Source of the DNA: an uncultured Synergistaceae bacterium
GTDB taxonomy: Bacteria; Synergistota; Synergistia; Synergistales; 79-D21
Length of the DNA: 64,000 nt
NCBI GenBank assembly: GCA_964425765.1
Contig: CAYRNZ010000009.1
Span: 4,675 to 68,674, forward strand
Direction: 5' to 3'
Shown here: positions 15,529 to 64,000 of the stretch, one piece after another
Layout of the letters: each line of letters opens with the position of its first letter
How positions within the stretch are numbered: the first letter of the stretch is position 1
Notes under the pieces: model-generated
Told to the model about the DNA's origin: nothing
Seen by the model: the letters and a program-made list of their open reading frames with translations, nothing else
Database searches by the model: none
Made by a program: the position numbers and the translations under genes

Positions 15529-16957
15529 CTTTTATGGGCTCTTGCTGCTCGAGGCGGCTCATGAGAAATTCACAAGCCCCGTTCACGTTCCCTGCGCCCA
15601 AGGTGAGAACAAGGTCTTCCCGGCGTGTTTCGCTGCCGATCCGCTCGACAGCTTCCGCAAGATCTTCGCAGAGGGTGACCTGGCGGGCACCGTTTTCCAT
15701 CATCCTGCGGGCGATGAGGTCCGAGCTGACTCCCGGAATAGGTCTTTCGTCTGCTCCGTAGATCGGGACTAGGAAGAGACGGTCGGCCCGGGCCAGGGCT
15801 TCCGCGAACTCCCCGAAAAGGGCCGCGGTCCTCGTGTAACGGTGAGGCTGGAAAAGCGTTACGATCCTCCTGCCCGGGAAAATCGACCGGATAGCGTCAA
15901 GAGTCGCTGCCACTTCCCTGGGATGGTGGCCGTAATCGTCGTAAATATCAACCTCACCGACCGAGCCCATGTACTGCAAGCGGCGTTTGGCCCCCTTGAA
16001 CCCTTTCAAGGCATCGCTCGCGACCTCGAAGGGGACGTTCATGCAGGAAGAAGCCGCACAAGCAGCCAAGGCGTTGAGCACGTTGTGCTCTCCCGAGACT
16101 TTCAGCGAAATAGAGCCTTTTTCCTTGCCATGGTGCAAGACCGTGAAAGTGACTCCGCCTCCGGGAACGTGCGTAACGTCATAAGCGCCCCAATCCCAGC
16201 CCTCTCCCCAACCATACGTTACCAAGGACCCCTTTCCTTCGCCTTCCGCGTTCAAGCTTATAAGTCGGCCGGCTCCAGGGTCTTCCCCGCAAATGACGAC
16301 AGACGATTCCTTCTTCCTCTTCTGGAGGAAGCGCATGAAGGCTTGCTCGACCTCTTGCTGGGTCTTGTAATGGTCCACGTGGTCCCAATCCACGTTCGTC
16401 ACGATTGCGACATTGGTTCGGAACATCTCGAACGAACCGTCACTTTCGTCCAGCTCGGCAACCATCGGCAATCCTGCGCCCAAGCGGGCATTAGCCCCGA
16501 TATCGCAGAGTTCGCCCCCGATCGCCACGGTCGGTTTCAATCCCGCCCGGTCCAGGATCAAAGCGGTCATCGACGACGTCGTCGTTTTTCCGTGTGTCCC
16601 GGCAATCCCTACACCAAATCGCTCGTTGAAGAGGGCGCTGAGGACCTCCGCACGTCTCGCGGTAGAAATCCCCCTTTTCCTCGCCTCCACGAGTTCCTCG
16701 TTGTAGTCTGGAATTGCGCTGCTGTAAACCAGCAAGTCCGGGTTATAACGGTCAAGATGCGCAGGGTCATGTCCAAGAACGCAATCTACCCGCCGGGCGA
16801 TCAATTTTTCCATGTAATACGAGTGAGCCATATCACACCCTGAAACCTCGAAACCAAGCTCGGAAAGAAGGGCAGCAAGCCCACTCATTCCTGAGCCGCC
16901 GATTCCGAGCAGGTGGACGTTCCTGATCCTGTCATGGCTCAGTTTTAGTCCGTCCAA
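15506..16957 (-). CDS. murC: UDP-N-acetylmuramate--L-alanine ligase MurC
   Basis: HLLGIGGSGMSGLA and GIAGTHGKTTTSSM motifs of Mur ligases. Confidence 0.93.
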   Translation of the reverse strand: MDGLKLSHDRIRNVHLLGIGGSGMSGLAALLSELGFEVSGCDMAHSYYMEKLIARRVDCVLGHDPAHLDRYNPDLLVYSSAIPDYNEELVEARKRGISTARRAEVLSALFNERFGVGIAGTHGKTTTSSMTALILDRAGLKPTVAIGGELCDIGANARLGAGLPMVAELDESDGSFEMFRTNVAIVTNVDWDHVDHYKTQQEVEQAFMRFLQKRKKESSVVICGEDPGAGRLISLNAEGEGKGSLVTYGWGEGWDWGAYDVTHVPGGGVTFTVLHHGKEKGSISLKVSGEHNVLNALAACAASSCMNVPFEVASDALKGFKGAKRRLQYMGSVGEVDIYDDYGHHPREVAATLDAIRSIFPGRRIVTLFQPHRYTRTAALFGEFAEALARADRLFLVPIYGADERPIPGVSSDLIARRMMENGARQVTLCEDLAEAVERIGSETRREDLVLTLGAGNVNGACEFLMSRLEQQEPIKDAMAVSA

Positions 16958-18051
16958 TTTACTTCTCCCCCTTCAAGAGTCCTGAGGATTTTTCCCAAGA
17001 AAACCTGGTTGCTGTGCTCTGCGGCGATTCCCGGATCCACGGAACTGGCATCTTCCGCTTCGCTTTTTCTTCCCAGCTGGATCAACCTGGCCACTAGCTC
17101 TCCCACGCTACCGCGCATTTCATCCCAGACAAGGCCGCATCCGCATTCCTCAAAAAGCCGCGCGTTTTCTGCCTGGTGGTCGTCACGGGATTCTGGCCAG
17201 GGAACAACCAGGGCTGGAATCGCCCAGGCCCGCAACTCCGAGAGCGTCGAAGCCCCTCCCCTGGCTACGGCAACATCCGCAAGGGAATAAAGGGGTCCCA
17301 TGTCCCAACGTCGCGGTATCCCCCAGACTCTATCCGACGGGTGATTATCCCCCATTTCCTTCCCCATGACAAGAAACGACCATCCCGTGAATTCCGGAAG
17401 CCCCGATATCTCAGTTACTTTTCCGGCAAGGGCGATGCTTCCAAGGGATCCTCCAAGGACAAGGCATATCCTGCCGTCGGGCAAATCACCCAACCCTAGT
17501 TTATTCCAAGCATCTCGGCGAGGCAAACGCTTCATGGGGCGAACCGGGACGCCAATTTCCTCGAACTGCCCTTTCAAAAAAGGCCTGCAGGCTTTCCAGC
17601 CCGTCAGAGGGACTATCCCCAGGCGTGCCGCCAGGCGGGTGACCTTCCCTGCGACGGCATTCTGCTCGTGGACCAGGGTCCTGACGTGCTTCAGCCTCCC
17701 TGCCACCAACGCCGGGAAAGAGATGTATCCCCCGAAGAGAACACAGGCATCCGGCTTCGTTTCCCCGAAAAAACGCGCCATCTCACGCAGCGACTGCAAA
17801 ACCTGGACCCAACGGGTAACGGCCCGGACGGCCCCCATGCCGAGGGGGGATCCTTCGCAGGGAAGAAAGACCGGTTCGATGCCGGCGTTCCTGTAAATCT
17901 CCAGTTCCAGCGGCCTGTTGCCGGAGACGTAGGAAATCTCGAGATCCGGCATTCTGGAAGAAAGCCATTGCCCCAGGCCGATGGCCGGGAAAATATGCCC
18001 GCCCGTACCTCCTGCGACAAGGACGAGACGCTTCAGGCCTGTCGGTTGCAC
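16945..18051 (-). CDS. murG: undecaprenyldiphospho-muramoylpentapeptide beta-N-acetylglucosaminyltransferase MurG
   Basis: Carries LVLVAGGTGGHIFPAIGL. The ORF-track start at 18978 would overlap all of ftsW in another frame, so I take the in-frame GTG at 18051 (VQPTGLKRLVLVAGG...), which overlaps the ftsW stop by 19 nt. Confidence 0.88.
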   Translation of the reverse strand: MQPTGLKRLVLVAGGTGGHIFPAIGLGQWLSSRMPDLEISYVSGNRPLELEIYRNAGIEPVFLPCEGSPLGMGAVRAVTRWVQVLQSLREMARFFGETKPDACVLFGGYISFPALVAGRLKHVRTLVHEQNAVAGKVTRLAARLGIVPLTGWKACRPFLKGQFEEIGVPVRPMKRLPRRDAWNKLGLGDLPDGRICLVLGGSLGSIALAGKVTEISGLPEFTGWSFLVMGKEMGDNHPSDRVWGIPRRWDMGPLYSLADVAVARGGASTLSELRAWAIPALVVPWPESRDDHQAENARLFEECGCGLVWDEMRGSVGELVARLIQLGRKSEAEDASSVDPGIAAEHSNQVFLGKILRTLEGGEVNWTD

Positions 18052-19175
18052 CGGCTCAGCCTCAGGAGGAGTCCAACCCTCAGCCACATCATGACCAGGG
18101 AACTCCCTCCGTAACTCAGGAAAGGCAATGGCATCCCCGTCAGGGGGATCAGTTTCGTCACGCCCCCCATGTTGATCGCCATTTGGGAGAAGACGTTCAG
18201 GCTCAAGCCCCAAATCAGGCAGGCCTCGAAAGTCCCCTCGATCCTTCGGTAATGGGTAAGCAGCCTGAAAAACCAGAAGGCAAAAAGCAATACTACAGAA
18301 AGAGTGCCCGCTAAACCCAGTTCTTCCCCTATCGCCGCCAGAATGAAATCCGTGTGAGAGGCAGGCAGGTATTTGAGTTTCTGGAGCCCCTGTCCCAACC
18401 CCATTCCCCAGGAGCCTCCGTTCGAGAAGGCAACCAATCCCTGGATAGCCTGGAAACCGCTTCCCAGGGGATCCTGCCAGGGGTCTAAAAAGGCCTTCAG
18501 TCTTCGCAGCCTGTATCCATGGGTGAAAATGAACGGGGAAGCCAGGGCAAAAAGCCCCCCTCCGCAGAAAAGCGGCAACGACCAGCCAAACAGGGGGATG
18601 TAAATACCCATTGCGAGGGCAAAAACAAGGATCGTGCTTCCCATATCCGGCTGGAGAAGCAGGGGAAGAACCGAAATACCAGCGAGAAGGGAGATTTTGA
18701 GAAAAGCGCTTAGGCTCGTTTCCTTTTCTCTTTTCTCGAAGAGCTTCCGACTGGCGTGAAGCGTGAAGGCGAAGAAGAGTACATCTGCAGCCTGCACCGT
18801 GACGAAACCTAGGTTGACCCAACGCCTTGCCCCGCCCGCGGAAACCCCGGTAACCGGGAAAAGAGGGAGAAAACAAAAAAACACTGCCAAAAGCCAGAAA
18901 ATACCGCTGCCCTTCTTCCAAAGGTCGATAGGGATGGAATGCACCGCAAGCATGACCCCGATCCCGATCAATAACCATACGGCCTGCTTGATCCCCAGGG
19001 CATGGGGGGATCCAAACCGCGCAATGGATATCGGGCTGGAGGAGGAACTGATCATGATGATCCCGATTCCGCTCAGAAGCAGCGGAATCAACCAGAGAAG
19101 AGGATCTGCCGTGCCTTCGTCACGAAGGTTCGACTCGTGTGGATCAAGCCGGGGCCTGAGTGTTGCCAACCTCAT
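18033..19175 (-). CDS. ftsW: SEDS-family peptidoglycan glycosyltransferase FtsW
   Basis: A ~10-TM SEDS protein with motifs QPDMGS, LPASHTDFI and PLPFLSYGGSS. Sits between murD and murG. Confidence 0.9.
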   Translation of the reverse strand: MRLATLRPRLDPHESNLRDEGTADPLLWLIPLLLSGIGIIMISSSSSPISIARFGSPHALGIKQAVWLLIGIGVMLAVHSIPIDLWKKGSGIFWLLAVFFCFLPLFPVTGVSAGGARRWVNLGFVTVQAADVLFFAFTLHASRKLFEKREKETSLSAFLKISLLAGISVLPLLLQPDMGSTILVFALAMGIYIPLFGWSLPLFCGGGLFALASPFIFTHGYRLRRLKAFLDPWQDPLGSGFQAIQGLVAFSNGGSWGMGLGQGLQKLKYLPASHTDFILAAIGEELGLAGTLSVVLLFAFWFFRLLTHYRRIEGTFEACLIWGLSLNVFSQMAINMGGVTKLIPLTGMPLPFLSYGGSSLVMMWLRVGLLLRLSRCNRQA

Positions 19176-28106: not shown

Positions 28107-28460
28107 GCTGTGGGAGCATCCCGTAAGCCGGGTTCTGTCTAGAACGGCCATTTATCTGGACTCGCACTTGCGTACGAGCTCTAGCGACCGTACCCGGGAG
28201 TCAGCGGGCCGCCTCATCCTCCCCTATTCGGTCTTGCTCCGGACGGGGTTTACCTAGCCCGCAGGTCACCCTGCGGCTGGTGGGCTCTTACCCCACCTTT
28301 TCACCCTTGCCGGGACTAGTCCCGGCGGTTTGTTTCTGTGGCACTCGCCTGAGGTTCGCACCTACTGGACGTTATCCAGCGTCCTGCCCTATGGAGCCCG
28401 GACTTTCCTCCGCCGGTCGCCTTTCGGCTTGCGGCAGCGGCCGTTTGTGATACTCCCACG
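28107..28460 (-). ncRNA. rnpB: RNase P RNA (bacterial type A)
   Basis: The minus strand contains the universally conserved GAGGAAAGTCCGGGCTCC (plus-strand 28393-28410) and ACAGAACCCGGCTTA (28122-28136). The 5' GTGGGAGTATC pairs with the 3' GATGCTCCCAC to form P1. Ends are +/- a few nt. Confidence 0.92.
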
Positions 28461-37967: not shown

Positions 37968-38043
37968 TGGAGCGGACAACGGGATTCGAACCCGCGACCC
38001 TCGGCTTGGGAAGCCGATGCTCTACCAGCTGAGCTATGTCCGC
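37968..38043 (-). tRNA. tRNA-Gly (anticodon CCC), CCA encoded
   Basis: The minus strand reads GCGGACATAGCTCAGCTGGTAGAGCATCGGCTTCCCAAGCCGAGGGTCGCGGGTTCGAATCCCGTTGTCCGCTCCA. It folds as a cloverleaf with a 7-bp acceptor stem and anticodon loop TTCCCAA. Confidence 0.93.
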
Positions 38044-40251: not shown

Positions 40252-42078
40252 CTATTCAACCGTAACGCTTTTCGCCAGGTTCCTCGGCTGGTCGATCTCG
40301 CAACCCCTGATTCTCGCCATATGGTAGGCGAAGAGCTGGAGCGGGACGACGGTCAGGAAAGGAGTCAGGTCTTCATCGGTCCACGGTACCCTGATGACGG
40401 AAACTGCGTGTTTGGAAATCAGCTCGTCCCCATCCGTGGCCAGTGCAAGAATGGGAGAACGCCTTGCCTTCGCCTCCTGGATGTTCGACAGGGTTTTCTC
40501 GTAAAGCCCGTCCCTGGGGATGATCGTCATCACCGGGACGCCAGGTTCCAGCAACGCGATGGGGCCATGCTTCATTTCGCCTGCAGCGTAGGCTTCCGCA
40601 TGAACATAGGAAATCTCCTTCAGCTTCAGGGCCCCTTCCAGGGCAACAGGGAAGGATATCCCCCTTCCCAGGAAAAGGAAATCCTTCCTGTCCGCGAACT
40701 CGCCTGCCAGTTCCCTGATGCCTTCTTCCCTTTCGAGGGTCACCTCCACCTTGTAAGGAAGGCGAAGCAATTCCTCTAGGAGCCGGTTCTCTTCGGCCGC
40801 CGATAGAGTTTCCCGTATCCTGCCCAGATAAAGCGCCAGAAGGTAGAGGGCCGCCATCTGTCCCATGAAGGTTTTCGTAGCCGCCACGCCTATCTCCGGC
40901 CCCGCCTTCAGGAGGAGCACGTCGTGCACCTCTCGGGCCAGGGTGGAACCCCTTACATTGGTCACAGCGAGGCAATGGGCGCCCTGGGTCCTGGCCAGGC
41001 GCTGGGCCGCCAGGGTATCCGCCGTCTCCCCCGACTGGGAGACGAAAACAGCCAGCGTCTCGGCATCGGCCCTGGAGTGTCGATAACGGTATTCGGAGGC
41101 AATGTCTACCTTCACTTCCAGGTCAGTCCACTTTTCCAGAACTCTTTCGGCCACCAATGCGGCGTAATAGGAAGTGCCGCAAGCCACGATATGCAGTTTC
41201 TTCCACGAGCGCACAAGGCCCGTGTCCCAGCCGAGTTCCGTCGAAAGGTCCACCCTTCCGTTCTCGACTCGCCCTTTGAGGGTCGTTCGCAACACCGCTC
41301 CCTGTTCGTGGATTTCCTTAAGCATGTAGTGAGGATACGCCGCCTTTTCCGTCATGGACACATCCCAGTCGATGACGGAAACCGGTTTTTCGACCGGGGA
41401 ACCCCCGTGGTCCCACACTTGGAGCTTCCCCATGGATACCGCTGCAATTTCTCCTTCTTCCAGGTAGACGACCTGGCGGGTGTACGGCAGGAGAGCAGGA
41501 ACATCCGAAGCGCAGAAGCCCTCCCCTTCCCCGACCCCTAGGACAAGGGGGGATCCCTTTCTGAGGCAGTAGAAAGTATCCTCGATCTCCCGGTTCATGA
41601 TCGCCAGCGCATAGGAGCCCCTCAGTTTTCCCACCATCTTTAAGAGCGCGTCCAGCATGTCTCCCCTGTAGATCCTCGCTAAAAGCTGGACTATGACCTC
41701 CGTATCCGTTTCGGAGCAGAACGTGACTCCGGCAGCTTCCAGTTCCTCCCTGAGATCGACGTAATTCTCGATGATCCCGTTGTGCACGAGGACGAAGTTG
41801 CCGCAATCGTCACAGTGCGGGTGTGCATTGTCGATCGACACGCCCCCATGGGTGGCCCAACGCGTATGCCCGATTCCCTGGCAGCCTCTCAGCCCTTTTT
41901 CCAGGGCAAGGCGTTCCAGGTCCGCGACCTTTCCTACCTCCTTTATCACGACTAGTTTCCCATCGCTTCTTACCGCCATTCCAGCGGAGTCATATCCCCT
42001 GTACTCGAGCCGCTTCAGCCCTTCCAGGAGGACGTCCGGCGCGTTTCTGAATCCCACATAGCCGACGATTCCACACAT
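40252..42078 (-). CDS. glmS: glutamine--fructose-6-phosphate aminotransferase GlmS
   Basis: MCGIVGYVG has the N-terminal nucleophile Cys. Two SIS domains and the C-terminal ...NLAKSVTVE are present. Confidence 0.97.
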   Translation of the reverse strand: MCGIVGYVGFRNAPDVLLEGLKRLEYRGYDSAGMAVRSDGKLVVIKEVGKVADLERLALEKGLRGCQGIGHTRWATHGGVSIDNAHPHCDDCGNFVLVHNGIIENYVDLREELEAAGVTFCSETDTEVIVQLLARIYRGDMLDALLKMVGKLRGSYALAIMNREIEDTFYCLRKGSPLVLGVGEGEGFCASDVPALLPYTRQVVYLEEGEIAAVSMGKLQVWDHGGSPVEKPVSVIDWDVSMTEKAAYPHYMLKEIHEQGAVLRTTLKGRVENGRVDLSTELGWDTGLVRSWKKLHIVACGTSYYAALVAERVLEKWTDLEVKVDIASEYRYRHSRADAETLAVFVSQSGETADTLAAQRLARTQGAHCLAVTNVRGSTLAREVHDVLLLKAGPEIGVAATKTFMGQMAALYLLALYLGRIRETLSAAEENRLLEELLRLPYKVEVTLEREEGIRELAGEFADRKDFLFLGRGISFPVALEGALKLKEISYVHAEAYAAGEMKHGPIALLEPGVPVMTIIPRDGLYEKTLSNIQEAKARRSPILALATDGDELISKHAVSVIRVPWTDEDLTPFLTVVPLQLFAYHMARIRGCEIDQPRNLAKSVTVE

Positions 42079-42104: not shown

Positions 42105-42255
42105 GCAACGAGAGACCCGGCTTTTGTCCCGGGAATCGCTCCCCGGATTTGTAGCCGGGCTTTTTCGGGCCACTCTCGTTCCGGCCCCGGGGGTACCCGC
42201 CGAATTTTCGATTGCCCCCGTCCTCGTCGACTGGCTCGCCAGTCCAGGCGCTTGC
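42105..42255 (-). ncRNA. glmS ribozyme (GlcN6P-responsive cis-regulatory RNA) in the glmS leader
   Basis: The minus strand reads A-GCGCC-TGGACTGGCGAGCCAGTC-GACGAGGA-CGGGGGCA-ATCGAA-AA-TTCGGCGG-GTACCCCC.... These are the conserved core blocks of the glmS ribozyme: cleavage-site AGCGCC, GACGAGGA, AUCGAA and UUCGGCGG. A closing helix AACGAGAG...CTCTCGTT follows, then the SD and ATG. Confidence 0.8.
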
Positions 42256-42277
42256 CCCATCCGCTTGGTTTCTTCCC

Positions 42278-48178: not shown

Positions 48179-49936
48179 CTACTTGACCCTGACCTTCCCC
48201 TGGTAAACGAGCCCCCGGGATCCGTCAACGGTGACAAGCATTCCATCCTCCAACAGGCTCAAGGCATCCTTCGCAGACACGACACAGGGAATCCCCATCT
48301 CCAGGGCAAGGATCGCCGCATGGCTGGTCAGTCCGCCCTCCTCGCAGATGATCGCCGAGGCCTGACGTATCGCGTCGACATAATCGCGATCCGTCTGCCG
48401 GGCGACAAGCACCGCTCCCTTCTGCATCTTCCTGGCGGCCTCCGCGGGCGTGGCGCCTTTGACGACCGGGCCGAAAGCCTCCTTGCGCACCAGCGATATC
48501 CCCTTGACGACGATGCGGCCCACCGTATGGACCTTGACCATGTCGGTCGTGCCGGCTATCCCGGTGGGGATCCCAGAAGTGACGACCACGATGTCTCCTT
48601 CGGAAACCAAGCCTTCGGCAAGCGTTGCCATGAGCCCGGATTCGACCATTTCCCTCTCGTCCTCGTGGGTCTTTCCCGTAAGGATAGGGAAGACGCCCCA
48701 GATGAGCGCAAGTTCCCTCCATGTCTTCGGGTCGGCCGTCACCCCGGTTATAGGGCATGAGGGCCTGTACTTGCTGACCATCCTAGCCGTGCTCCCGCTT
48801 TTCGTCAGTGACAGGATGACCTTGGCCTGCATCTGGTCGGCGATCGTCACGGCCGCGTGGCTGACGGCGTCCGGGACGGTCTGGGAGGCGACGGGAGGTA
48901 GCGAGGAAGGCCTTTGCCAGACACGGATCTCCTTTTCCGTCCTAAAGATGATCCGTGCCATGGTCTCGACCGCCTGCACCGGGTAGACTCCCTTGGCGGT
49001 CTCACCGGAGAGCATCACCGCATCGGCACCGTCCAGCACCGCGTTGGCGACGTCATTGACCTCCGCCCTGGTGGGACGAGGGTTCCTGATCATCGAATCC
49101 AGCATCTGGGTCGCCACGATGACCGGCTTGCCCTGTGAGCGCCCCAGATCGACCATCCTCTTCTGGATGAGAGGAACCTCCTCCGCAGGCAGTTCCACAC
49201 CAAGATCGCCTCTTGCGACCATCAACCCGTCCACGACCTCCACGATCTCCTGCAGGGACGCCGCGGCTTCGCTCGTTTCAATTTTTGCGATGATTTTCAT
49301 CGAACCGCCAAGTTCCTCCATCACGCGGCGCACTTCCATGATGTCGTCCCTGGAACGGACGAAGGAGACGGCTATGTAGTCTACCCCGTTGTCCAGTCCC
49401 CATCTGATGTCTCTTCTGTCCTTGTCCGTGAGTGTCGGGATCTTGAGGTTCGCCCCGGGGACGCTGACTCCCTTGTGTTCCCCAAGTTCTCCGCCCACGA
49501 GGACATCCATCAGCAGACTGTTTCCCCGCGCTTCCAGGACCCTCAGCTGAAGGGTTCCGTCATCGATGAAGACGTCCTGCCCCGTCTTCAGTTCAGAGCA
49601 GATTTCAGGGTAGCTGATGGTGACCTTCGTGGCGTCGCCTTCTATTTCTTCGGGTATGAAGGAAAAAGTCCCCCCCTGTACGAGATGGACCGGATGGCCG
49701 TCTTTCAAGCTGCCCGTACGGATTTCGGGCCCTTTCGTGTCTAGCATCGTGGCCAGGGGGATCCTCAGGTTCCGCTCGACAGTCCTGATGTTCTCAAGAT
49801 TCCTGCCATGGCTCTCGTAAGATCCATGGCTAAAGTTCAAGCGGGCGACATTCATCCCGGCCCTGACCATGGCACCCAGCGTCTCTACCGACTCACAGGC
49901 GGGGCCTAGAGTACAGACGATCTTAACCTTTCTCAT
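48179..49936 (-). CDS. pyk: pyruvate kinase with C-terminal PEP-utilising-enzyme mobile domain
   Basis: MRKVKIVCTLGPACES..., the MVARGDLGVE motif, and a C-terminal swivelling domain (GGLTSHAAILALEMGIPCVV) as in Bacillus/Geobacillus PK. The second of two ATGs (49936) has better spacing to the GGGAGGG SD. Confidence 0.95.
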   Translation of the reverse strand: MRKVKIVCTLGPACESVETLGAMVRAGMNVARLNFSHGSYESHGRNLENIRTVERNLRIPLATMLDTKGPEIRTGSLKDGHPVHLVQGGTFSFIPEEIEGDATKVTISYPEICSELKTGQDVFIDDGTLQLRVLEARGNSLLMDVLVGGELGEHKGVSVPGANLKIPTLTDKDRRDIRWGLDNGVDYIAVSFVRSRDDIMEVRRVMEELGGSMKIIAKIETSEAAASLQEIVEVVDGLMVARGDLGVELPAEEVPLIQKRMVDLGRSQGKPVIVATQMLDSMIRNPRPTRAEVNDVANAVLDGADAVMLSGETAKGVYPVQAVETMARIIFRTEKEIRVWQRPSSLPPVASQTVPDAVSHAAVTIADQMQAKVILSLTKSGSTARMVSKYRPSCPITGVTADPKTWRELALIWGVFPILTGKTHEDEREMVESGLMATLAEGLVSEGDIVVVTSGIPTGIAGTTDMVKVHTVGRIVVKGISLVRKEAFGPVVKGATPAEAARKMQKGAVLVARQTDRDYVDAIRQASAIICEEGGLTSHAAILALEMGIPCVVSAKDALSLLEDGMLVTVDGSRGLVYQGKVRVK

Positions 49937-50189
49937 CATGTGCCCTCCCGCACGGTATCTTTCCGTGCTTCGTGTAGACTTCCGCCGTGCCTCTTATCTT
50001 GATGGCCGACGTGTGTTCCGTGAACTGCGAAATCCACAACTCGCCCGCATCGAGCTTCTCCGTATGGCTGAACTTCGTCTCCTGCCCGCGGGTAAGGCCG
50101 ATGACGGTCACTCCGTTTTCGAGTGCCCTGATCACTATGTAGTCGCTCAGGACGGATTTGGCCTCTCCAGAATCCTCTCGCACGCTCAT
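49923..50189 (-). CDS. mtrB: trp RNA-binding attenuation protein (TRAP, MtrB) homolog
   Basis: [64 protein letters not shown] aligns gap-free with B. subtilis MtrB as I recall it; about two thirds of positions are identical by eye. ATG 50189 abuts the SD, so GTG 50183 may be the true start. Confidence 0.85.
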   Translation of the reverse strand: [88 protein letters not shown]

Positions 50190-50207
50190 CCCTCCCTGTT
50201 CCTGGGA

Positions 50208-53200
50208 TCAAATGATCACTTCGATGCAACCCCCGGACAACTCGGCCAGGCGCTCTGACAGGGATGGTTCCGGTTTCACCTTGATTTCCCTGAGACGGAC
50301 GAGCGCGGTGGAGCCTCCGTCCAAATACTCCACAAGTACGGGACATGTCCCCGGATGCCCCTTCAATTCCCTGCAAACGGCCTTCAGGCAGATCTCTTTA
50401 ACCTTGGCACGCACACGGATCTTTACGAAAGGATCCTGGCTGGATTCAACCTCCGACAGGGGCAGGATCTCCTCCGCCACGATGGTTATTCCGCCCCGGT
50501 CCTGGACCTTCCCTCGGGCAAGAAAGACCTTTCCAGGATCCAGCGTGGCCTTGACCGCCGGCCAGGCTTTCGGGAAGCAGACGATTTCTATCCTGGATTC
50601 GGTGTCTTCGAATTCGAGGATACCCATGAGATCCCCTTTTTTTGTCGACTTTTCGCGAAAACCCACGAGGAGTCCCCCCACGGTGGCAGTGGATTCGGCA
50701 GCCTTCCAGAAGGCGAGATCGGAGATCCTGCAGGTCGTGAAACGCGACAGCCTCTGTTCCTCGCGTTCAAGAGGGTGGCCGGAGATAAACAGGCCCAGCA
50801 CTTGTTTTTCCAGGTCCAGTTTTTCGACGAGGGAATAATCCTCGCACTCGCCAAGTACCGGTTCCTCCTGGGGCAATTCCTCCACCAGGGCCAAAAGGGA
50901 TCTTTGCGCCCCGTCGTTCTGCTTTTTCTGGACTCTCTCGACCAGCATCGGAAGGTTTTCCAGAAGTTGACGGCGGTTTGGATGAAGGCTGTTGAAAGAC
51001 CCCGACTTGATAAGGTTTTCGATAACCCCGCGGTTCACGGCCCGCAAGTCGACCTTGTTCAGGAAATCCCATAGGGACTTGAAGGCCCCCTTGCTCTCCC
51101 GAGCCTTGATCATGGACTCTACGGCGGATTCTCCCGCCTTGGCAACCGCCTTCAGCCCAAACCTGATAACATTCCCCACTGCGGAGAAACTTGCCCCCGA
51201 TTCGTTCACGTCCGGAGGCAGAACTTGTGTTCCCGAATTCTTGACCTCGCGGACGTATCGAGCCAGGACATCCATCCGGGATCCTATCTGGCTGGACAGA
51301 AACGCCGCGAAGAACTCGGCCTTGTAGTGTGCCTTCAGATAGGCGGTCTGGTAGCTGATGAGGGCGTAGGCCGCGCTGTGAGACTTGTTGAAACCGTAAC
51401 CGGCAAACTTCTGTATTAGGTCAAAAAGCGGTTCGGCTGTCGAGCTTTCGACTCCTTTGCGGAGGCAGCCGTCCACGAATTTTTTTCTCTGTTGTTCCAT
51501 GACTTCCAACTTCTTCTTTCCCATCGCCCGCCGGAGAAGATCCGCTTCTCCCAGGGAGAACCCGCCCAACGTGGCGGCTATCTGCATGACCTGTTCCTGG
51601 TAGAGAATGACACCGTAGGTTTCCCGCAGGACGGGTTCAAGCAGGGGATGGGGATAAACAACCTGGGAACGCCCATGTTTGCAGTTGATGAACTGGTCCA
51701 CCATGCCGCTCTCGAGGGGACCCGGGCGGTATAGGGCCAGGATCGCGACGAGGTCCTCGAAAGAATCCGGGACGATCCTTTTCAGGAGTTGCCTCATGCC
51801 TGTGGATTCAAGCTGGAAAACCCCAAGAGTATCGGCAGCCTGCAGCAGGGAATAGGCCGCAGGGTCGTCGAGGGGCAGTGCGTTGACGTCGGGAACTTCT
51901 TTACCGTTCACCCGGATGTTCTCAAGGGTGTCTTCGATCATGGACAGAGTCCTCAGGCCCAGGAAGTCCATCTTTACTAGCCCAAGTTTTTCGATGGCCT
52001 CCATCCCGAACTGTGTGACGACTTGTCCGTCTCCGATCTTTCTTACCGGCACGAGTTCCGTGACCTGCACGGGCGAGATAACCACTCCGGCTGCATGCTG
52101 CGAACAGTGCCGGGCCAGGCCTTCGATGCTCCCGGCTACTTCGAGGAGGTTATTGATGGCCGGTTCCTTCCTTTGGAAAGCGGCAAGGTCTGGGGAAGCC
52201 TCGATTGCCTCCGCTATGCTCGAAGCGCCGTCAGGGATGCTCTTGGCCACCCTGTTCACGTCGGCCAGCGGAATCCCCAAGGCCCTCCCGACATCCCGGA
52301 CGGCACCTTTGCTTTTCATCCGATCGAAAGTGATGATCTGTGCAACATGATCCCGGCCGTATTTTTCGACGACGTACTCGAGGACCTCATCCCGGCGCTT
52401 GTCGGAAATGTCCGTATCGATATCGGGCATGCTGATCCGTTCCGGGTTGAGGAACCTTTCGAAAAGCAGGTGATAACGGATGGGATCCAATTCCGTGATT
52501 CGAAGAGCCCAAGCGGCAAGTGAACCTGCCGCAGACCCTCGCCCCGGTCCTACCGGAATCCCCCGCGACTTCGCCGCCCTGATGAAATCCGAGACCACCA
52601 GGAAATACCCGGAAAAACCCATGCTCCGGATAACTCCAAGTTCGTAGGCCATCCTATCCCTGTATTCACTGGGCGGCGACTCCCCCATTCTCTCCCTGAG
52701 GCCTTCCCACGCCAGCTTTTCCAGGTAACTTTCCAGGTTGTCCCCTTCCGGGACTTCGTATCGGGGAAGACGGTAGACGTTGAAGTCCAGCCTGACATCG
52801 CACATCTGGGCAACTTCCAGCGTATTCGTCAATGATTCCGGGAGTTCCTTCCCGAAGAGTTCCCACATCTCCTCTGGGGAGCGCAGGAAAAAATCAGGCG
52901 CACCGAACCGGTAACGGTTTGGCGCGTCAACGGTTGCGTTCGTCTGGACGCAGAGGAGGACGTCATGCCACGATGCGTCGCCTGCGTTCAGGTAATGTGC
53001 GTCATTTGTGGCCACGAGAGGGATTCCCGTACTTCGGGAGATCCTCACGATCGCCTTGTTGACCAATGCCTGTTCGGGCAATGCATTGTGCATGATTTCG
53101 AGGTAGAAGTTGCCCTTGCCCAGGATATCCTGGTAAAGAAGGGCTTTCTCTGCAGCCCCCTTCTCGTTCCCTTCCAGGATCAGCGAGGGAATTTCCCCCG

Positions 53201-53615
53201 CAAGGCAGGCCGAGGAACCCAAGAGCCCTTTGGAATGGCGCGCGAGCAAGTCGTGGTCGATTCGGGGTTTGTAGTAGAAACCATCCGTGTTCGCGATGGA
53301 AACGAGCCTGACCAGGTTGTGGTATCCCTCCAGGTCCTTCGCGATCAGGACCAGGTGGTTGTTCCCCCCCTTGCGGTCCCGGCAGGTGTGCCCCAAAGGA
53401 TCGATATAGGCCTCGCAGCCTAACAGGGGTTTAATGCCTGAGGAGAGACATTTCTCATAAAATTCCACGATCCCGTACATCGCCCCATGGTCCGTCAGTG
53501 CAACGGCGGGGCATCCCCATCCGGCCGTTTTCGCGGCGAGATCCGAGCAGCGTATCGCGCCGTCCAGCAAGCTGTATTCGCTGTGGACATGAAGGTGGAC
53601 AAAGGACTCCGTCAA
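50208..53615 (-). CDS. dnaE: DNA polymerase III subunit alpha DnaE
   Basis: 1135 aa with an N-terminal PHP domain (FVHLHVHSEYSLLDG), the polymerase core (PDIDTD) and an OB fold. Confidence 0.97.
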   Translation of the reverse strand: MTESFVHLHVHSEYSLLDGAIRCSDLAAKTAGWGCPAVALTDHGAMYGIVEFYEKCLSSGIKPLLGCEAYIDPLGHTCRDRKGGNNHLVLIAKDLEGYHNLVRLVSIANTDGFYYKPRIDHDLLARHSKGLLGSSACLAGEIPSLILEGNEKGAAEKALLYQDILGKGNFYLEIMHNALPEQALVNKAIVRISRSTGIPLVATNDAHYLNAGDASWHDVLLCVQTNATVDAPNRYRFGAPDFFLRSPEEMWELFGKELPESLTNTLEVAQMCDVRLDFNVYRLPRYEVPEGDNLESYLEKLAWEGLRERMGESPPSEYRDRMAYELGVIRSMGFSGYFLVVSDFIRAAKSRGIPVGPGRGSAAGSLAAWALRITELDPIRYHLLFERFLNPERISMPDIDTDISDKRRDEVLEYVVEKYGRDHVAQIITFDRMKSKGAVRDVGRALGIPLADVNRVAKSIPDGASSIAEAIEASPDLAAFQRKEPAINNLLEVAGSIEGLARHCSQHAAGVVISPVQVTELVPVRKIGDGQVVTQFGMEAIEKLGLVKMDFLGLRTLSMIEDTLENIRVNGKEVPDVNALPLDDPAAYSLLQAADTLGVFQLESTGMRQLLKRIVPDSFEDLVAILALYRPGPLESGMVDQFINCKHGRSQVVYPHPLLEPVLRETYGVILYQEQVMQIAATLGGFSLGEADLLRRAMGKKKLEVMEQQRKKFVDGCLRKGVESSTAEPLFDLIQKFAGYGFNKSHSAAYALISYQTAYLKAHYKAEFFAAFLSSQIGSRMDVLARYVREVKNSGTQVLPPDVNESGASFSAVGNVIRFGLKAVAKAGESAVESMIKARESKGAFKSLWDFLNKVDLRAVNRGVIENLIKSGSFNSLHPNRRQLLENLPMLVERVQKKQNDGAQRSLLALVEELPQEEPVLGECEDYSLVEKLDLEKQVLGLFISGHPLEREEQRLSRFTTCRISDLAFWKAAESTATVGGLLVGFREKSTKKGDLMGILEFEDTESRIEIVCFPKAWPAVKATLDPGKVFLARGKVQDRGGITIVAEEILPLSEVESSQDPFVKIRVRAKVKEICLKAVCRELKGHPGTCPVLVEYLDGGSTALVRLREIKVKPEPSLSERLAELSGGCIEVII

Positions 53616-55432
53616 TCCGCCACACCTCCATCCTCAAAATCCCCGGCGGGATTTACATCCCCTTCCTCGCGAACGAGAAGGACTTCCCCGCCGAACCACC
53701 CCATCATTTCCTCCAGGGGCGACCGGGTAGCCCCTCCCCCAGCGGGGGCGCCCTCGTCACCGGAGACTTGGTCCTGTTTTCCGTTTCCGCCTTTTTCCAA
53801 GGCCGACTTCCGCTTTTCCCAGGGCGGCACGTTCGGCATCCCTGGAATCGGAATGGCGTCGGGGATCGCCGCCCCTTCAGCGCTGACACATTCGGCACCG
53901 CAACAGAAAGTGACAGGAAGCGGGCCCAGGTCCCTTTCTTTCAGGGATGTAAATCTTCTCAAGTTCTTCTCCAGTCGCACCAGTTCAAATCCAAGCCGGT
54001 CCCTTTCCTCGAAACGTACGGTAATCCCGTTGCCCGCTGAAAGAACACTGGCGCTCGACAGGGCCGCGGCCGCCAGTCGGTCTTCAGGATCACCGCTGTC
54101 AAGAAGACGGGCCCAAAAAGACCGCACCCTGTCAGGTTCTATGCTTTCTGCCGCATGGGTTTCCGGCTTTCGCTGCTCCGGCTTATGCCCCGTAAAAATT
54201 CCCGCCGCGGCTTGGCCGCCGGCGGAAGGAACGGTTAACTGGACCTGGGCCTCAAGGGTGGGAGAAAACTGCTTTAAAGACGGCATTCTGCCGGGATCCT
54301 TCCCATGCAGAGGGTTGGCGGGCGAGAGACCCTGAAGCAGTAAACCGGCAAGGACATCCGTCCTGATACCGTAGCGCAGCCTCCCGAGCATTTTCGCCTG
54401 GTTTTCAAGGCAAAAACGAAGGCTTTCGACAGGCCAGTACTTCGACTCTTCGAGGAGGAAATCTTTCTCCTCTTTGGAGAGCTCAAGCGATTCAAGCGTC
54501 TTTTCACCCCAGGTCCCTATTATCCATAGGTCTCGGAAAATGACAAAAAGGCTTTCCAGGAGCCTCTCCATGGAGGCTCCTTTATGAAGGGAATCCATCA
54601 GTTTTCCGATCGCACCTTCCGGGTTGGACCGATAGGTGGACACGAACGCCTCCATTTCCGCGCGACTGCCCCCTCCGACCAGAGCCTGGACAGTTTCCGT
54701 CGTAACAGAGCCGCCTCCTATGGGAACCGCCTGTTCGAGCAGGGAAAGGGCGTCCCTCATCGCCCCATCGGCCTGCCTCGCCAATTCCCAGAGAGCGTTG
54801 TCCTCGGACGGGATATTCTCTCTAGAGCAGACCTCGGCAAGCCGATGCGCGATTTCCCGGCCGGGAATCCTCCGGAAAGGGATGTGTTGGCATCGGGAAC
54901 GGATTGTTACCGGGACCTTTTGCGGTTCCGTAGTCGCAAGGATGAAAACCGCGTGGGAAGGAGGTTCTTCTAGCGTTTTCAGCAAGGCGTTGAACGCCGG
55001 CTCTGTTAGCATGTGCACTTCATCCACGATGTAAACTTTTTTTCTCGAAGAGAAAGGGGCCAGTGAAACATGGGCCTTGAGTTCCCTTATTTCATCGATG
55101 CCCCGGTTCGAAGCGCCGTCGATCTCCACGACATCGAGGCTCGCCGACGTAGTGATGGCAACGCAGCTGGGGCATTCCCCGCAGGGTTCGGCCCCGGGTC
55201 GTATGTCCGTGCAATTGAGAGCCTTGGCGAGGATCCTCGCCAGGGAGGTCTTTCCGCAACCCCTGGGTCCCGAAAAAAGGTAGGCGTGGACAGTCTTGCC
55301 TCCCTCGAGAGCGTGCCGCAGGACCGAGATCGCTGCGTCCTGGCCTATGACCTCCCCAAACTGTAACGGCCTGTAACGCCTGTATAGGGAGACGTACTTG
55401 TCCTGAGGAGAAAAAACCCCGTTCCCCGTCAT
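53612..55432 (-). CDS. dnaX: DNA polymerase III subunits gamma/tau DnaX
   Basis: RYRPLQFGEVIGQ, Walker A GPRGCGKTS, zinc module CGECPSC, DEVHML, and SRC motif in TIRSRCQ. Its stop forms an ATGA overlap with the dnaE start. Confidence 0.93.
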   Translation of the reverse strand: MTGNGVFSPQDKYVSLYRRYRPLQFGEVIGQDAAISVLRHALEGGKTVHAYLFSGPRGCGKTSLARILAKALNCTDIRPGAEPCGECPSCVAITTSASLDVVEIDGASNRGIDEIRELKAHVSLAPFSSRKKVYIVDEVHMLTEPAFNALLKTLEEPPSHAVFILATTEPQKVPVTIRSRCQHIPFRRIPGREIAHRLAEVCSRENIPSEDNALWELARQADGAMRDALSLLEQAVPIGGGSVTTETVQALVGGGSRAEMEAFVSTYRSNPEGAIGKLMDSLHKGASMERLLESLFVIFRDLWIIGTWGEKTLESLELSKEEKDFLLEESKYWPVESLRFCLENQAKMLGRLRYGIRTDVLAGLLLQGLSPANPLHGKDPGRMPSLKQFSPTLEAQVQLTVPSAGGQAAAGIFTGHKPEQRKPETHAAESIEPDRVRSFWARLLDSGDPEDRLAAAALSSASVLSAGNGITVRFEERDRLGFELVRLEKNLRRFTSLKERDLGPLPVTFCCGAECVSAEGAAIPDAIPIPGMPNVPPWEKRKSALEKGGNGKQDQVSGDEGAPAGGGATRSPLEEMMGWFGGEVLLVREEGDVNPAGDFEDGGVAD

Positions 55433-63772: not shown

Positions 63773-64000
63773 TCAGATATGCATGACCCCCAACCCGCAC
63801 CGTTCGTGGTGGGCAACCGCATGATAGGCCGTATCACCTACCATCGACACGGCGATCCAGTTCGCATTCCGGACGATGGCCAGTTTCGCCCCGATACTCG
63901 CCTCCAAGGTGCCGAGTGCAATGAACCCGTTGATTGCCTCAAGAGCCGCGTGCATCAGCGCATGCATCTCCCTGGGCTTCTTGTCCACGACGCCCGCGTT
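63773..64000 (-). CDS. hutP: HutP-family RNA-binding protein, C-terminal half (5' end beyond the right edge)
   Basis: The frame is open to the window edge. ...REMHALMHAALEAINGF...NWIAVSMVGDTAYHAVAHHERCGLGVMHI* parallels the B. subtilis HutP C-terminal half as I recall it (RESHALYHATMEALHG...DWIAVSLYGTIG...LEHETFGVGINHI*). Confidence 0.6.
   Translation of the reverse strand, partial: NAGVVDKKPREMHALMHAALEAINGFIALGTLEASIGAKLAIVRNANWIAVSMVGDTAYHAVAHHERCGLGVMHI

Follow-up and report, generated by a model that had tools for sequence, protein, structure and literature searches.

TRAP (trp RNA-binding attenuation protein), the product of mtrB, is a textbook model of protein-mediated attenuation and has been studied almost only in Bacillus. 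Here we analyse an mtrB gene in a 64-kb window (the whole stretch of DNA under study) from an uncultured Synergistaceae bacterium, contig CAYRNZ010000009.1. The gene lies between dnaE and pyk, with dnaX further upstream, and the features of this cluster, given in minus-strand order, are as follows.

53612–55432, minus strand: dnaX, clamp-loader tau/gamma; overlaps the dnaE start by 4 nucleotides (nt); conserved
50208–53615, minus strand: dnaE, DNA polymerase III alpha, 1135 residues, with PHP, DNA_pol3_alpha, finger, HHH_6 and OB domains; conserved upstream neighbour
50190–50196, minus strand: Shine-Dalgarno sequence GGGAGGG of mtrB, as read from the sequence
49923–50183, minus strand: mtrB (TRAP) coding sequence, most likely 86 residues from a GTG, based on the open reading frame (ORF), matches in Pfam, NCBIfam and PDB, Shine-Dalgarno spacing and database calls
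49943–49949, minus strand: Shine-Dalgarno sequence GGGAGGG of pyk, embedded in the mtrB codons Gly81-Arg82-Ala83
49923–49936, minus strand: mtrB/pyk overlap of 14 nt
48179–49936, minus strand: pyk, pyruvate kinase with a C-terminal phosphoenolpyruvate (PEP)-utilizer domain, most likely 585 residues from the second ATG; PK, PK_C and PEP-utilizers domains

Gene boundaries and the mtrB/pyk junction

The maximal mtrB ORF runs from an ATG at 50189 to 49923 and encodes 88 residues, with the sequence quoted in the initial annotation of this DNA. The Shine-Dalgarno sequence (50196–50190) abuts this ATG, with a spacing of 0 nt, whereas a GTG in the same frame, at 50183, is 6 nt away from it; the 86-residue product of the latter is therefore favoured as the most likely one, and 86 residues is also the length in all database gene calls. 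The dnaE stop codon (TGA, 50210–50208) lies 18 nt ahead of the ATG, the distance given originally, and 24 nt ahead of the GTG.

At its other end mtrB runs into pyk. The maximal pyk ORF (48179–49939) encodes 586 residues, and its start is most likely the second ATG, at 49936, which has the Shine-Dalgarno sequence 6 nt ahead of it and matches the database calls of 585 residues. As first described, the ribosome-binding sequence of pyk falls within the last mtrB codons (49949–49943) and the mtrB TAA (49925–49923) within the pyk start region. The C-terminal tail of mtrB does differ from that of the known proteins, as had been pointed out, but this is simply explained: read in the other frame, the stretch that encodes the conserved pyk N-terminus M-M-R-K-V-K yields its end, D-E-K-G-stop. 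An overlap of 13 or 14 nt is found in 7 of 15 Synergistota loci, the others having overlaps of 21 to 0 nt or a gap of 25–35 nt. This geometry suggests translational coupling between the two genes. A consensus scan found no promoter- or terminator-like site between dnaX, dnaE, mtrB and pyk, which fits a single dnaX-dnaE-mtrB-pyk transcript with dnaX as its probable first gene.

Family membership, fold and contact residues

The assignment of the ORF to the TRAP family, made initially by eye, is borne out by a strong match to the Pfam profile TrpBP (PF02081; E=1.3e-37, 128 bits against a cutoff of 21.3, profile positions 3–66 of 69). The MtrB equivalog model of NCBIfam (NF009724) is matched with 130 bits, above its curated cutoff of 117, and the PDB TRAP match has E=6.5e-25, with gap-free alignment to all solved TRAPs at 62–67% identity. 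The 43 gap-free identities over 64 positions counted by eye are exactly what BLASTP returns against the reference quoted with that count. Against the B. subtilis TRAP sequence, the identity is 41/66. The quoted reference, although labelled "B. subtilis", is a better fit to the G. stearothermophilus protein (1c9s, 130.6 bits) than to that of B. subtilis (1wap, 111.5 bits).

Seven strands are present in an AlphaFold2 monomer model for which 19 Synergistota-type sequences were used, and its predicted local distance difference test score is 77.6, with core blocks at 75–95 and low confidence only at residues 1–14 and 86–88. In a Foldseek comparison with the PDB, the top 41 matches are all TRAP chains, with a root-mean-square deviation of 1.0–1.2 Å (about 1.1 Å) over 64–67 residues and TM(target) values of 0.87–0.94. 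The predicted subunit fold is thus the seven-strand, all-beta sandwich of the solved TRAP structures.

The ligand contacts were followed in an alignment of 25 TRAPs, which includes 19 Synergistota-type sequences, four from Bacillota and the G. stearothermophilus protein. We take the tryptophan (Trp) pocket, from the 1wap structure, to include G23-L-T25-R-G27, H34, Q47 and S53. T30 is a further pocket residue according to PMC1474065, and T49/T52 are named as such in the title of PDB entry 9be8. In the window protein and its relatives, G31-L-T-R-G35, T38, H42, Q55, T57 and T60 are invariant and S61 is at least 90% conserved, the pocket segment Q55-F-T-E58 being conserved across the aligned TRAPs. 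The residues in contact with RNA (F32, E36, K37, D39, K56 and R58 in B. subtilis numbering; PMC3184956, Table 3) map at a constant offset of +8 to F40, E44, K45, D47, K64 and R66, the last five invariant and F40 at least 90% conserved. The motifs singled out at the outset (GLTRG, QFTEHTS, EKLD, AIK, IRG) are all present and invariant across the alignment, and the Lys/Lys/Arg triad of RNA contacts is kept as K45, K64 and R66.

Two further traits were recorded. The first is Trp52 (codon at 50036–50034, minus strand), invariant in the Synergistota clade and found in only one of 68 other TRAP loci (L026, from Acididesulfobacillus; L numbers denote the loci surveyed), the rest having Met, Leu, Tyr, Ile or Val. 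The second is an N-terminal extension of about 10 residues; it had been noted before and is real, but not peculiar to this protein, since it is variable in sequence, predicted to be disordered, and also found in Bacillota TRAPs such as that of Ammonifex.

The gene is under purifying selection. Among nine Synergistota species, over a 70-codon core, the ratio of nonsynonymous to synonymous substitution rates (dN/dS) has a median of 0.11 and a maximum of 0.22, with synonymous sites saturated; against the 91%-identical homolog of locus L008, the window gene has a dN of 0.025 and a proportion of synonymous differences (pS) of 0.85. At least 15 Synergistota species carry the ORF in intact form. Because the profiles, the fold, the contact residues and purifying selection all agree, we regard it as practically certain that the ORF is a functional TRAP/MtrB ortholog and not a relic.

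Compared with the TRAPs of G. stearothermophilus and B. subtilis (1c9s, 1qaw, 1wap), the window protein is 62–67% identical and gap-free over a core of 64–66 residues, with a predicted seven-strand fold at about 1.1 Å; the residues that contact RNA (F, E, K, D, K, R) and the motifs of the Trp pocket are the same. It differs from them in its Synergistota host, in the arrangement dnaX-dnaE-mtrB-pyk instead of folE(mtrA)-mtrB, in the approximately 10 extra, N-terminal residues, predicted to be disordered, and the longer tail overlapping pyk, and in having W52, Q36 and S41 where they have L/I, A/T and H. It also shares the fold (predicted here) and the RNA- and Trp-binding residues with the TRAP of Alkalihalobacillus (Bacillus) halodurans, a natural 12-mer (3zzl). 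The 12-mer determinants of the latter (Lys15, Asp71, Thr72; PMC3184956) are absent from the window protein, which has Leu23, Pro79 and Cys80 in their place, the last being Ser in most Synergistota. As Leu replaces Lys at the equivalent of position 15, and Cys or Ser replaces Thr at that of position 72, the stoichiometry of the ring would lean to the 11-mer class, although a tail five residues longer makes the class uncertain.

Distribution and chromosomal context

The nearest homologs are from Synergistota (Synergistaceae and Synergistales metagenome-assembled genomes, Aminomonas paucivorans, Aminiphilus circumscriptus and Thermovirga), and many of the close ones are already labelled "trp RNA-binding attenuation protein MtrB" by NCBI and JGI. 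In all, the homologs form 2444 clusters at 90% identity, and a scan of one genome per species confirmed TRAP loci in at least 593 species-level genomes. Their hosts belong to many Bacillota classes (Desulfotomaculia, Thermincolia, Moorellia, Limnochordia, Halanaerobiales, Alicyclobacillus and Paenibacillus being represented), in addition to Synergistota. The view from which the initial annotation started, that TRAP is limited to Bacillus and a few relatives, is therefore outdated. In the openly accessible literature we found no paper discussing TRAP outside Bacillaceae, Synergistetes and Clostridia included; comparative papers of the mid-2000s reportedly noted it in some clostridia.

In a neighbour-joining tree of 63 columns, the Synergistota TRAPs form one clade on the full data, with a bootstrap of 20/60, the weakness of which is explained by the shortness of the alignment. 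A recent horizontal insertion of mtrB was considered and rejected: the single clade (at that bootstrap value), the private W52 and the same synteny in several families speak against it, and they argue for old vertical inheritance within Synergistota.

The gene order around mtrB is conserved. In the Synergistota loci that could be judged, which come from several families, dnaE is upstream of mtrB in 12/12 and pyk downstream in 10/10, the order being dnaX-dnaE-mtrB-pyk and then nudix/nfo/cdaA/ybbR/glmM. Outside Synergistota, counting the TRAP loci with enough flanking sequence to judge, dnaE is directly upstream and on the same strand in 44 of 54 (81%), pyk is found a few kb downstream in 29 of 53 (55%), and trpE is downstream in only seven. 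The initial annotation had regarded the gene as inserted between dnaE and pyk in an atypical context, a description that these counts contradict. It had correctly remarked that no folE/mtrA partner and no trp genes are nearby, and there are none in the whole window; the Bacillus-type pairing of mtrB with folE is replaced here by dnaE upstream and pyk downstream. With 81% of the other TRAP loci linked to dnaE, linkage to folE is a Bacillus-type trait and does not define the family.

A dnaE-(malic enzyme)-accD-accA-pfkA-pyk block is known from B. subtilis. In the dnaE-linked loci of Bacillota, Clostridia among them, that most resemble the window, mtrB directly follows dnaE and precedes pyk, with accD-accA-pfkA in between in Carboxydothermus islandicus (L036) and Thermincola (L024) and pfkA alone in Desulfoscipio geothermicus (L080). 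Their TRAPs are 60–78% identical to that of the window, have a variable N-terminal extension and no local NAG array and, unlike it, carry Met, Leu or Tyr at position 52. Locus L062 runs from dnaE through genes for malic enzyme and a TrkA_C protein and then mtrB to a triplet array and the trp operon. Judged by gene order, mtrB is an old resident of the dnaE...pyk block, to which the folE-mtrB operon of Bacillus is the exception, and the Synergistota arrangement is, on the same grounds, this block without accD, accA and pfkA rather than an insertion between dnaE and pyk.

Search for an RNA target

Arrays of NAG triplets were sought with two scanners. The contiguous one scores GAG or TAG as 1, AAG as 0.5 and CAG as 0.25, with spacers of 2–3 nt free and others penalised; the gapped one, which tolerates inserts of 10–40 nt, was added after the arrays of L014 (10270–10497) and L018 (2536–2766) were found to be broken by small GC-rich hairpins into short blocks, ahead of a terminator. 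Both of these loci are trp-linked and scored nothing with the contiguous scanner. In the gapped scan they reached 7.5 and 7.75, respectively, as compared with 10.25 for L029, 7.5 for L033, truncated by its contig end, and 12.75–18.75 for the remaining controls.

The contiguous scanner places arrays of 8–12 triplets precisely in the interval from mtrB to the first biosynthetic gene in L013, L045, L062 and L063, and in L033 at the contig end; a GC hairpin and a T-run come after the array of L013, and a terminator also follows the array in the L213 leader. Apart from such trp-linked arrays, the contiguous scan of 1.35 Mb of loci yielded only two weak matches (L046, L084). The trp operon of Capillibacterium thermochitinicola starts with a consensus promoter, which is followed by an array of 10 triplets, a terminator and trpE; no mtrB lies within 10 kb to either side of it, so that action in trans is normal for TRAP. 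Since arrays are found essentially only before trp operons, which are sometimes unlinked to mtrB, the lack of an array next to a given mtrB gene is expected rather than odd.

Within the window, neither scanner found a (G/U)AG array: no chain there reaches a score of 5.0, where the maxima of dinucleotide-shuffled sequence are 4.4±0.45 (contiguous) and 5.05±0.65 (gapped), in agreement with the earlier failure to see an array in any leader. The only match of 7.5 in the Synergistota loci, in L051, falls on the beginning of mtrB, which is rich in Glu codons, and does not rise above the noise seen in the negative control L214 (7.75). In an Rfam scan the window yielded RNase P RNA, a glmS ribozyme, a single tRNA and no other match, T-box or otherwise. 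Extending the window by 10 kb and 5 kb at its edges added glycolysis, ribosomal, thyX and hutP genes; no trp genes were found in these extensions or in 15 Synergistota mtrB loci. A TrpE profile made from seven trp-linked TRAP loci had no Synergistota protein among the 120 best matches listed, which were of Bacillota type or unnamed and mostly fusions of DAHP synthase (DAHPS) with TrpE. The openly accessible literature held nothing relevant that we could find on Trp auxotrophy in Synergistota. In a scan of metagenome contigs for seven (G/U)AG triplets with 2-nt spacers, the matches listed, at least 120, were mostly pentanucleotide tandem repeats and none of them came from the JGI samples that hold this species.

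The fusions just mentioned also appear in the surveyed loci. In L013 (10420–12753), L014 (10449–12803), L018 (2664–5084) and L062 (10447–12777), the first gene after the TRAP array is a continuous ORF of about 775 residues, a class I-beta DAHP synthase fused to anthranilate synthase component I (TrpE). The combination of PF00793, PF04715 and PF00425 recurs in dozens of database proteins, 766–833 residues long, for instance in Hydrogenispora ethanolica, and in L063 the same N-terminal peptide is found without the DAHPS domain. The fusion would put the enzyme that opens the common aromatic pathway together with the first enzyme of the Trp branch under TRAP control. Two sequences labelled Bacteroidota belong to the same survey: L068 (JBLNCE010000111.1, "Bacteroidota bacterium"), which carries TRAP and pyk, and protein P0132, a DAHPS-TrpE fusion. 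Both look like Bacillota sequences, and their contigs are probably mis-binned.

Discussion

The gene is a recognisable ortholog in a known family, in a phylum where public pipelines already label it MtrB, and in the usual chromosomal position. We hold it to be probable that a functional TRAP is made from a housekeeping cluster and acts in trans on a Trp-related NAG array. In such a model, mtrB would most likely be produced constitutively from the dnaX-dnaE-mtrB-pyk transcript, and ribosomes finishing mtrB would reinitiate on pyk where the two genes overlap. The subunits would assemble into a ring of 11 or 12 which, with Trp bound between subunits, would wrap an RNA carrying some 9–11 (G/U)AG triplets elsewhere in the genome. 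Most probably this RNA is a trp biosynthesis operon's leader, where binding would lead to termination; alternatively, the ring could cover the ribosome-binding region of a gene for Trp transport or biosynthesis and block its translation. Taken by itself, the proposal that the target is a Trp-related array in trans seems to us rather likely.

Several points weigh against this account. No credible array was found by either scanner in the window, in its edge extensions of about 15 kb or in 15 Synergistota loci (about 270 kb). No Synergistota trp operon is among the sequences examined, so that these organisms may not make Trp at all, and the cultured relatives live by fermenting amino acids and depend on yeast extract. 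Co-transcription and coupling are deduced from geometry alone, and some members of the clade lack the overlap with pyk. Finally, the clade-invariant W52 may have an effect on the pocket or on the packing of the ring.

In view of how the cultured relatives live, the regulon may concern the uptake or catabolism of Trp and not its biosynthesis. The protein would then work as a canonical ring, activated by Trp and binding NAG triplets, and control the uptake, export or catabolism of Trp, for instance through a translational block on a transporter mRNA. This would agree with the absence of trp genes from the 64 kb with its extensions and from each of the 15 Synergistota mtrB loci and, more weakly, with the lack of a Synergistota TrpE among the 120 best profile matches listed; moreover, TRAP of B. 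subtilis also regulates transport genes, as stated in PMC1474065. Nevertheless, nothing speaks positively for such a shift and, wherever a target is visible, it is the leader of a trp operon, so that we consider it unlikely. A further suggestion is that in Synergistota, which live on amino acids by fermentation and may not make Trp themselves, TRAP has been kept for a non-biosynthetic regulon (uptake, export or degradation of Trp or indole), or that Trp52 alters its ligand specificity or ring stoichiometry. We grant it a minor chance; if true, it would constitute the first TRAP regulon outside Bacillota and outside biosynthesis. 

Regulation closer to home, with TRAP acting on pyk or on the dnaE-pyk transcript and tying Trp status to the consumption of PEP, might be read from the conserved adjacency of mtrB and pyk, the 14-nt overlap and the pyk Shine-Dalgarno sequence inside mtrB, PEP being a precursor of the aromatic amino acids. 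Yet no NAG array occurs in or around dnaE, mtrB and pyk in 16 Synergistota sequences, one third of the Synergistota loci have a gap of 25–35 nt and no overlap, and the Bacillota block has accD-accA-pfkA between the two genes, their adjacency here being a consequence of the loss of those in between. On synteny and the absence of arrays, we reject this possibility as very improbable. No more credence can be given to the idea that the TRAP fold is in decay or has been neofunctionalised, with its binding of Trp or RNA lost; this idea could draw on the missing local target and on the clade's own substitutions (W52, Q36, S/A41). It is rejected on the dN/dS of about 0.11 (with saturated dS), and is also at odds with the six RNA contacts known from the literature and the pocket motifs, conserved across the clade, with the intact ORF in at least 15 Synergistota species and with a score above the equivalog cutoff. 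Action in trans on a Trp-related array is thus the reading that we retain.

These results correct a view of TRAP centred on Bacillus. The family is represented in a second phylum, the gene usually resides in the dnaE...pyk block and not in a folE-mtrB operon, and TRAP normally acts on unlinked trp leaders; from the survey of loci there also results a simple comparative rule for locating TRAP regulons. What is worth keeping from the window itself is the corrected context of mtrB, the Synergistota-specific W52 and the question of what a TRAP regulon would be in amino-acid fermenters.

Other features of the window

Structured RNAs and further genes were recorded outside the mtrB cluster. The RNAs, all identified with Rfam, are the following.

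28109–28456, minus strand: RNase P RNA, bacterial class A (287.6 bits)
37971–38043, minus strand: tRNA gene, single
42105–42263, minus strand: glmS ribozyme (RF00234, 89.7 bits), directly upstream of glmS (40252–42078)

The ORF at 16945–18978 (minus strand) encodes 677 residues, of which only 319–641 match MurG glycosyltransferase domains, the N-terminal 300 or so having no Pfam match at E<=1e-5; a fusion of FtsW and MurG is possible, or else an ORF extended too far, which overlaps 18033–19175. At the right end, a HutP-family gene (PF09021; about 63773–64000, minus strand) runs off the window, the full gene being at 2926–3471 of L211, and it adjoins the genes for ribosomal protein L31 and thyX. 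Like TRAP, HutP is a small ligand-activated multimer, with histidine as the ligand, that binds spaced NAG-type triplets in leader RNA. In contrast to the product of mtrB, to which it is unrelated in fold and family, it is a hexamer and causes antitermination, not termination.

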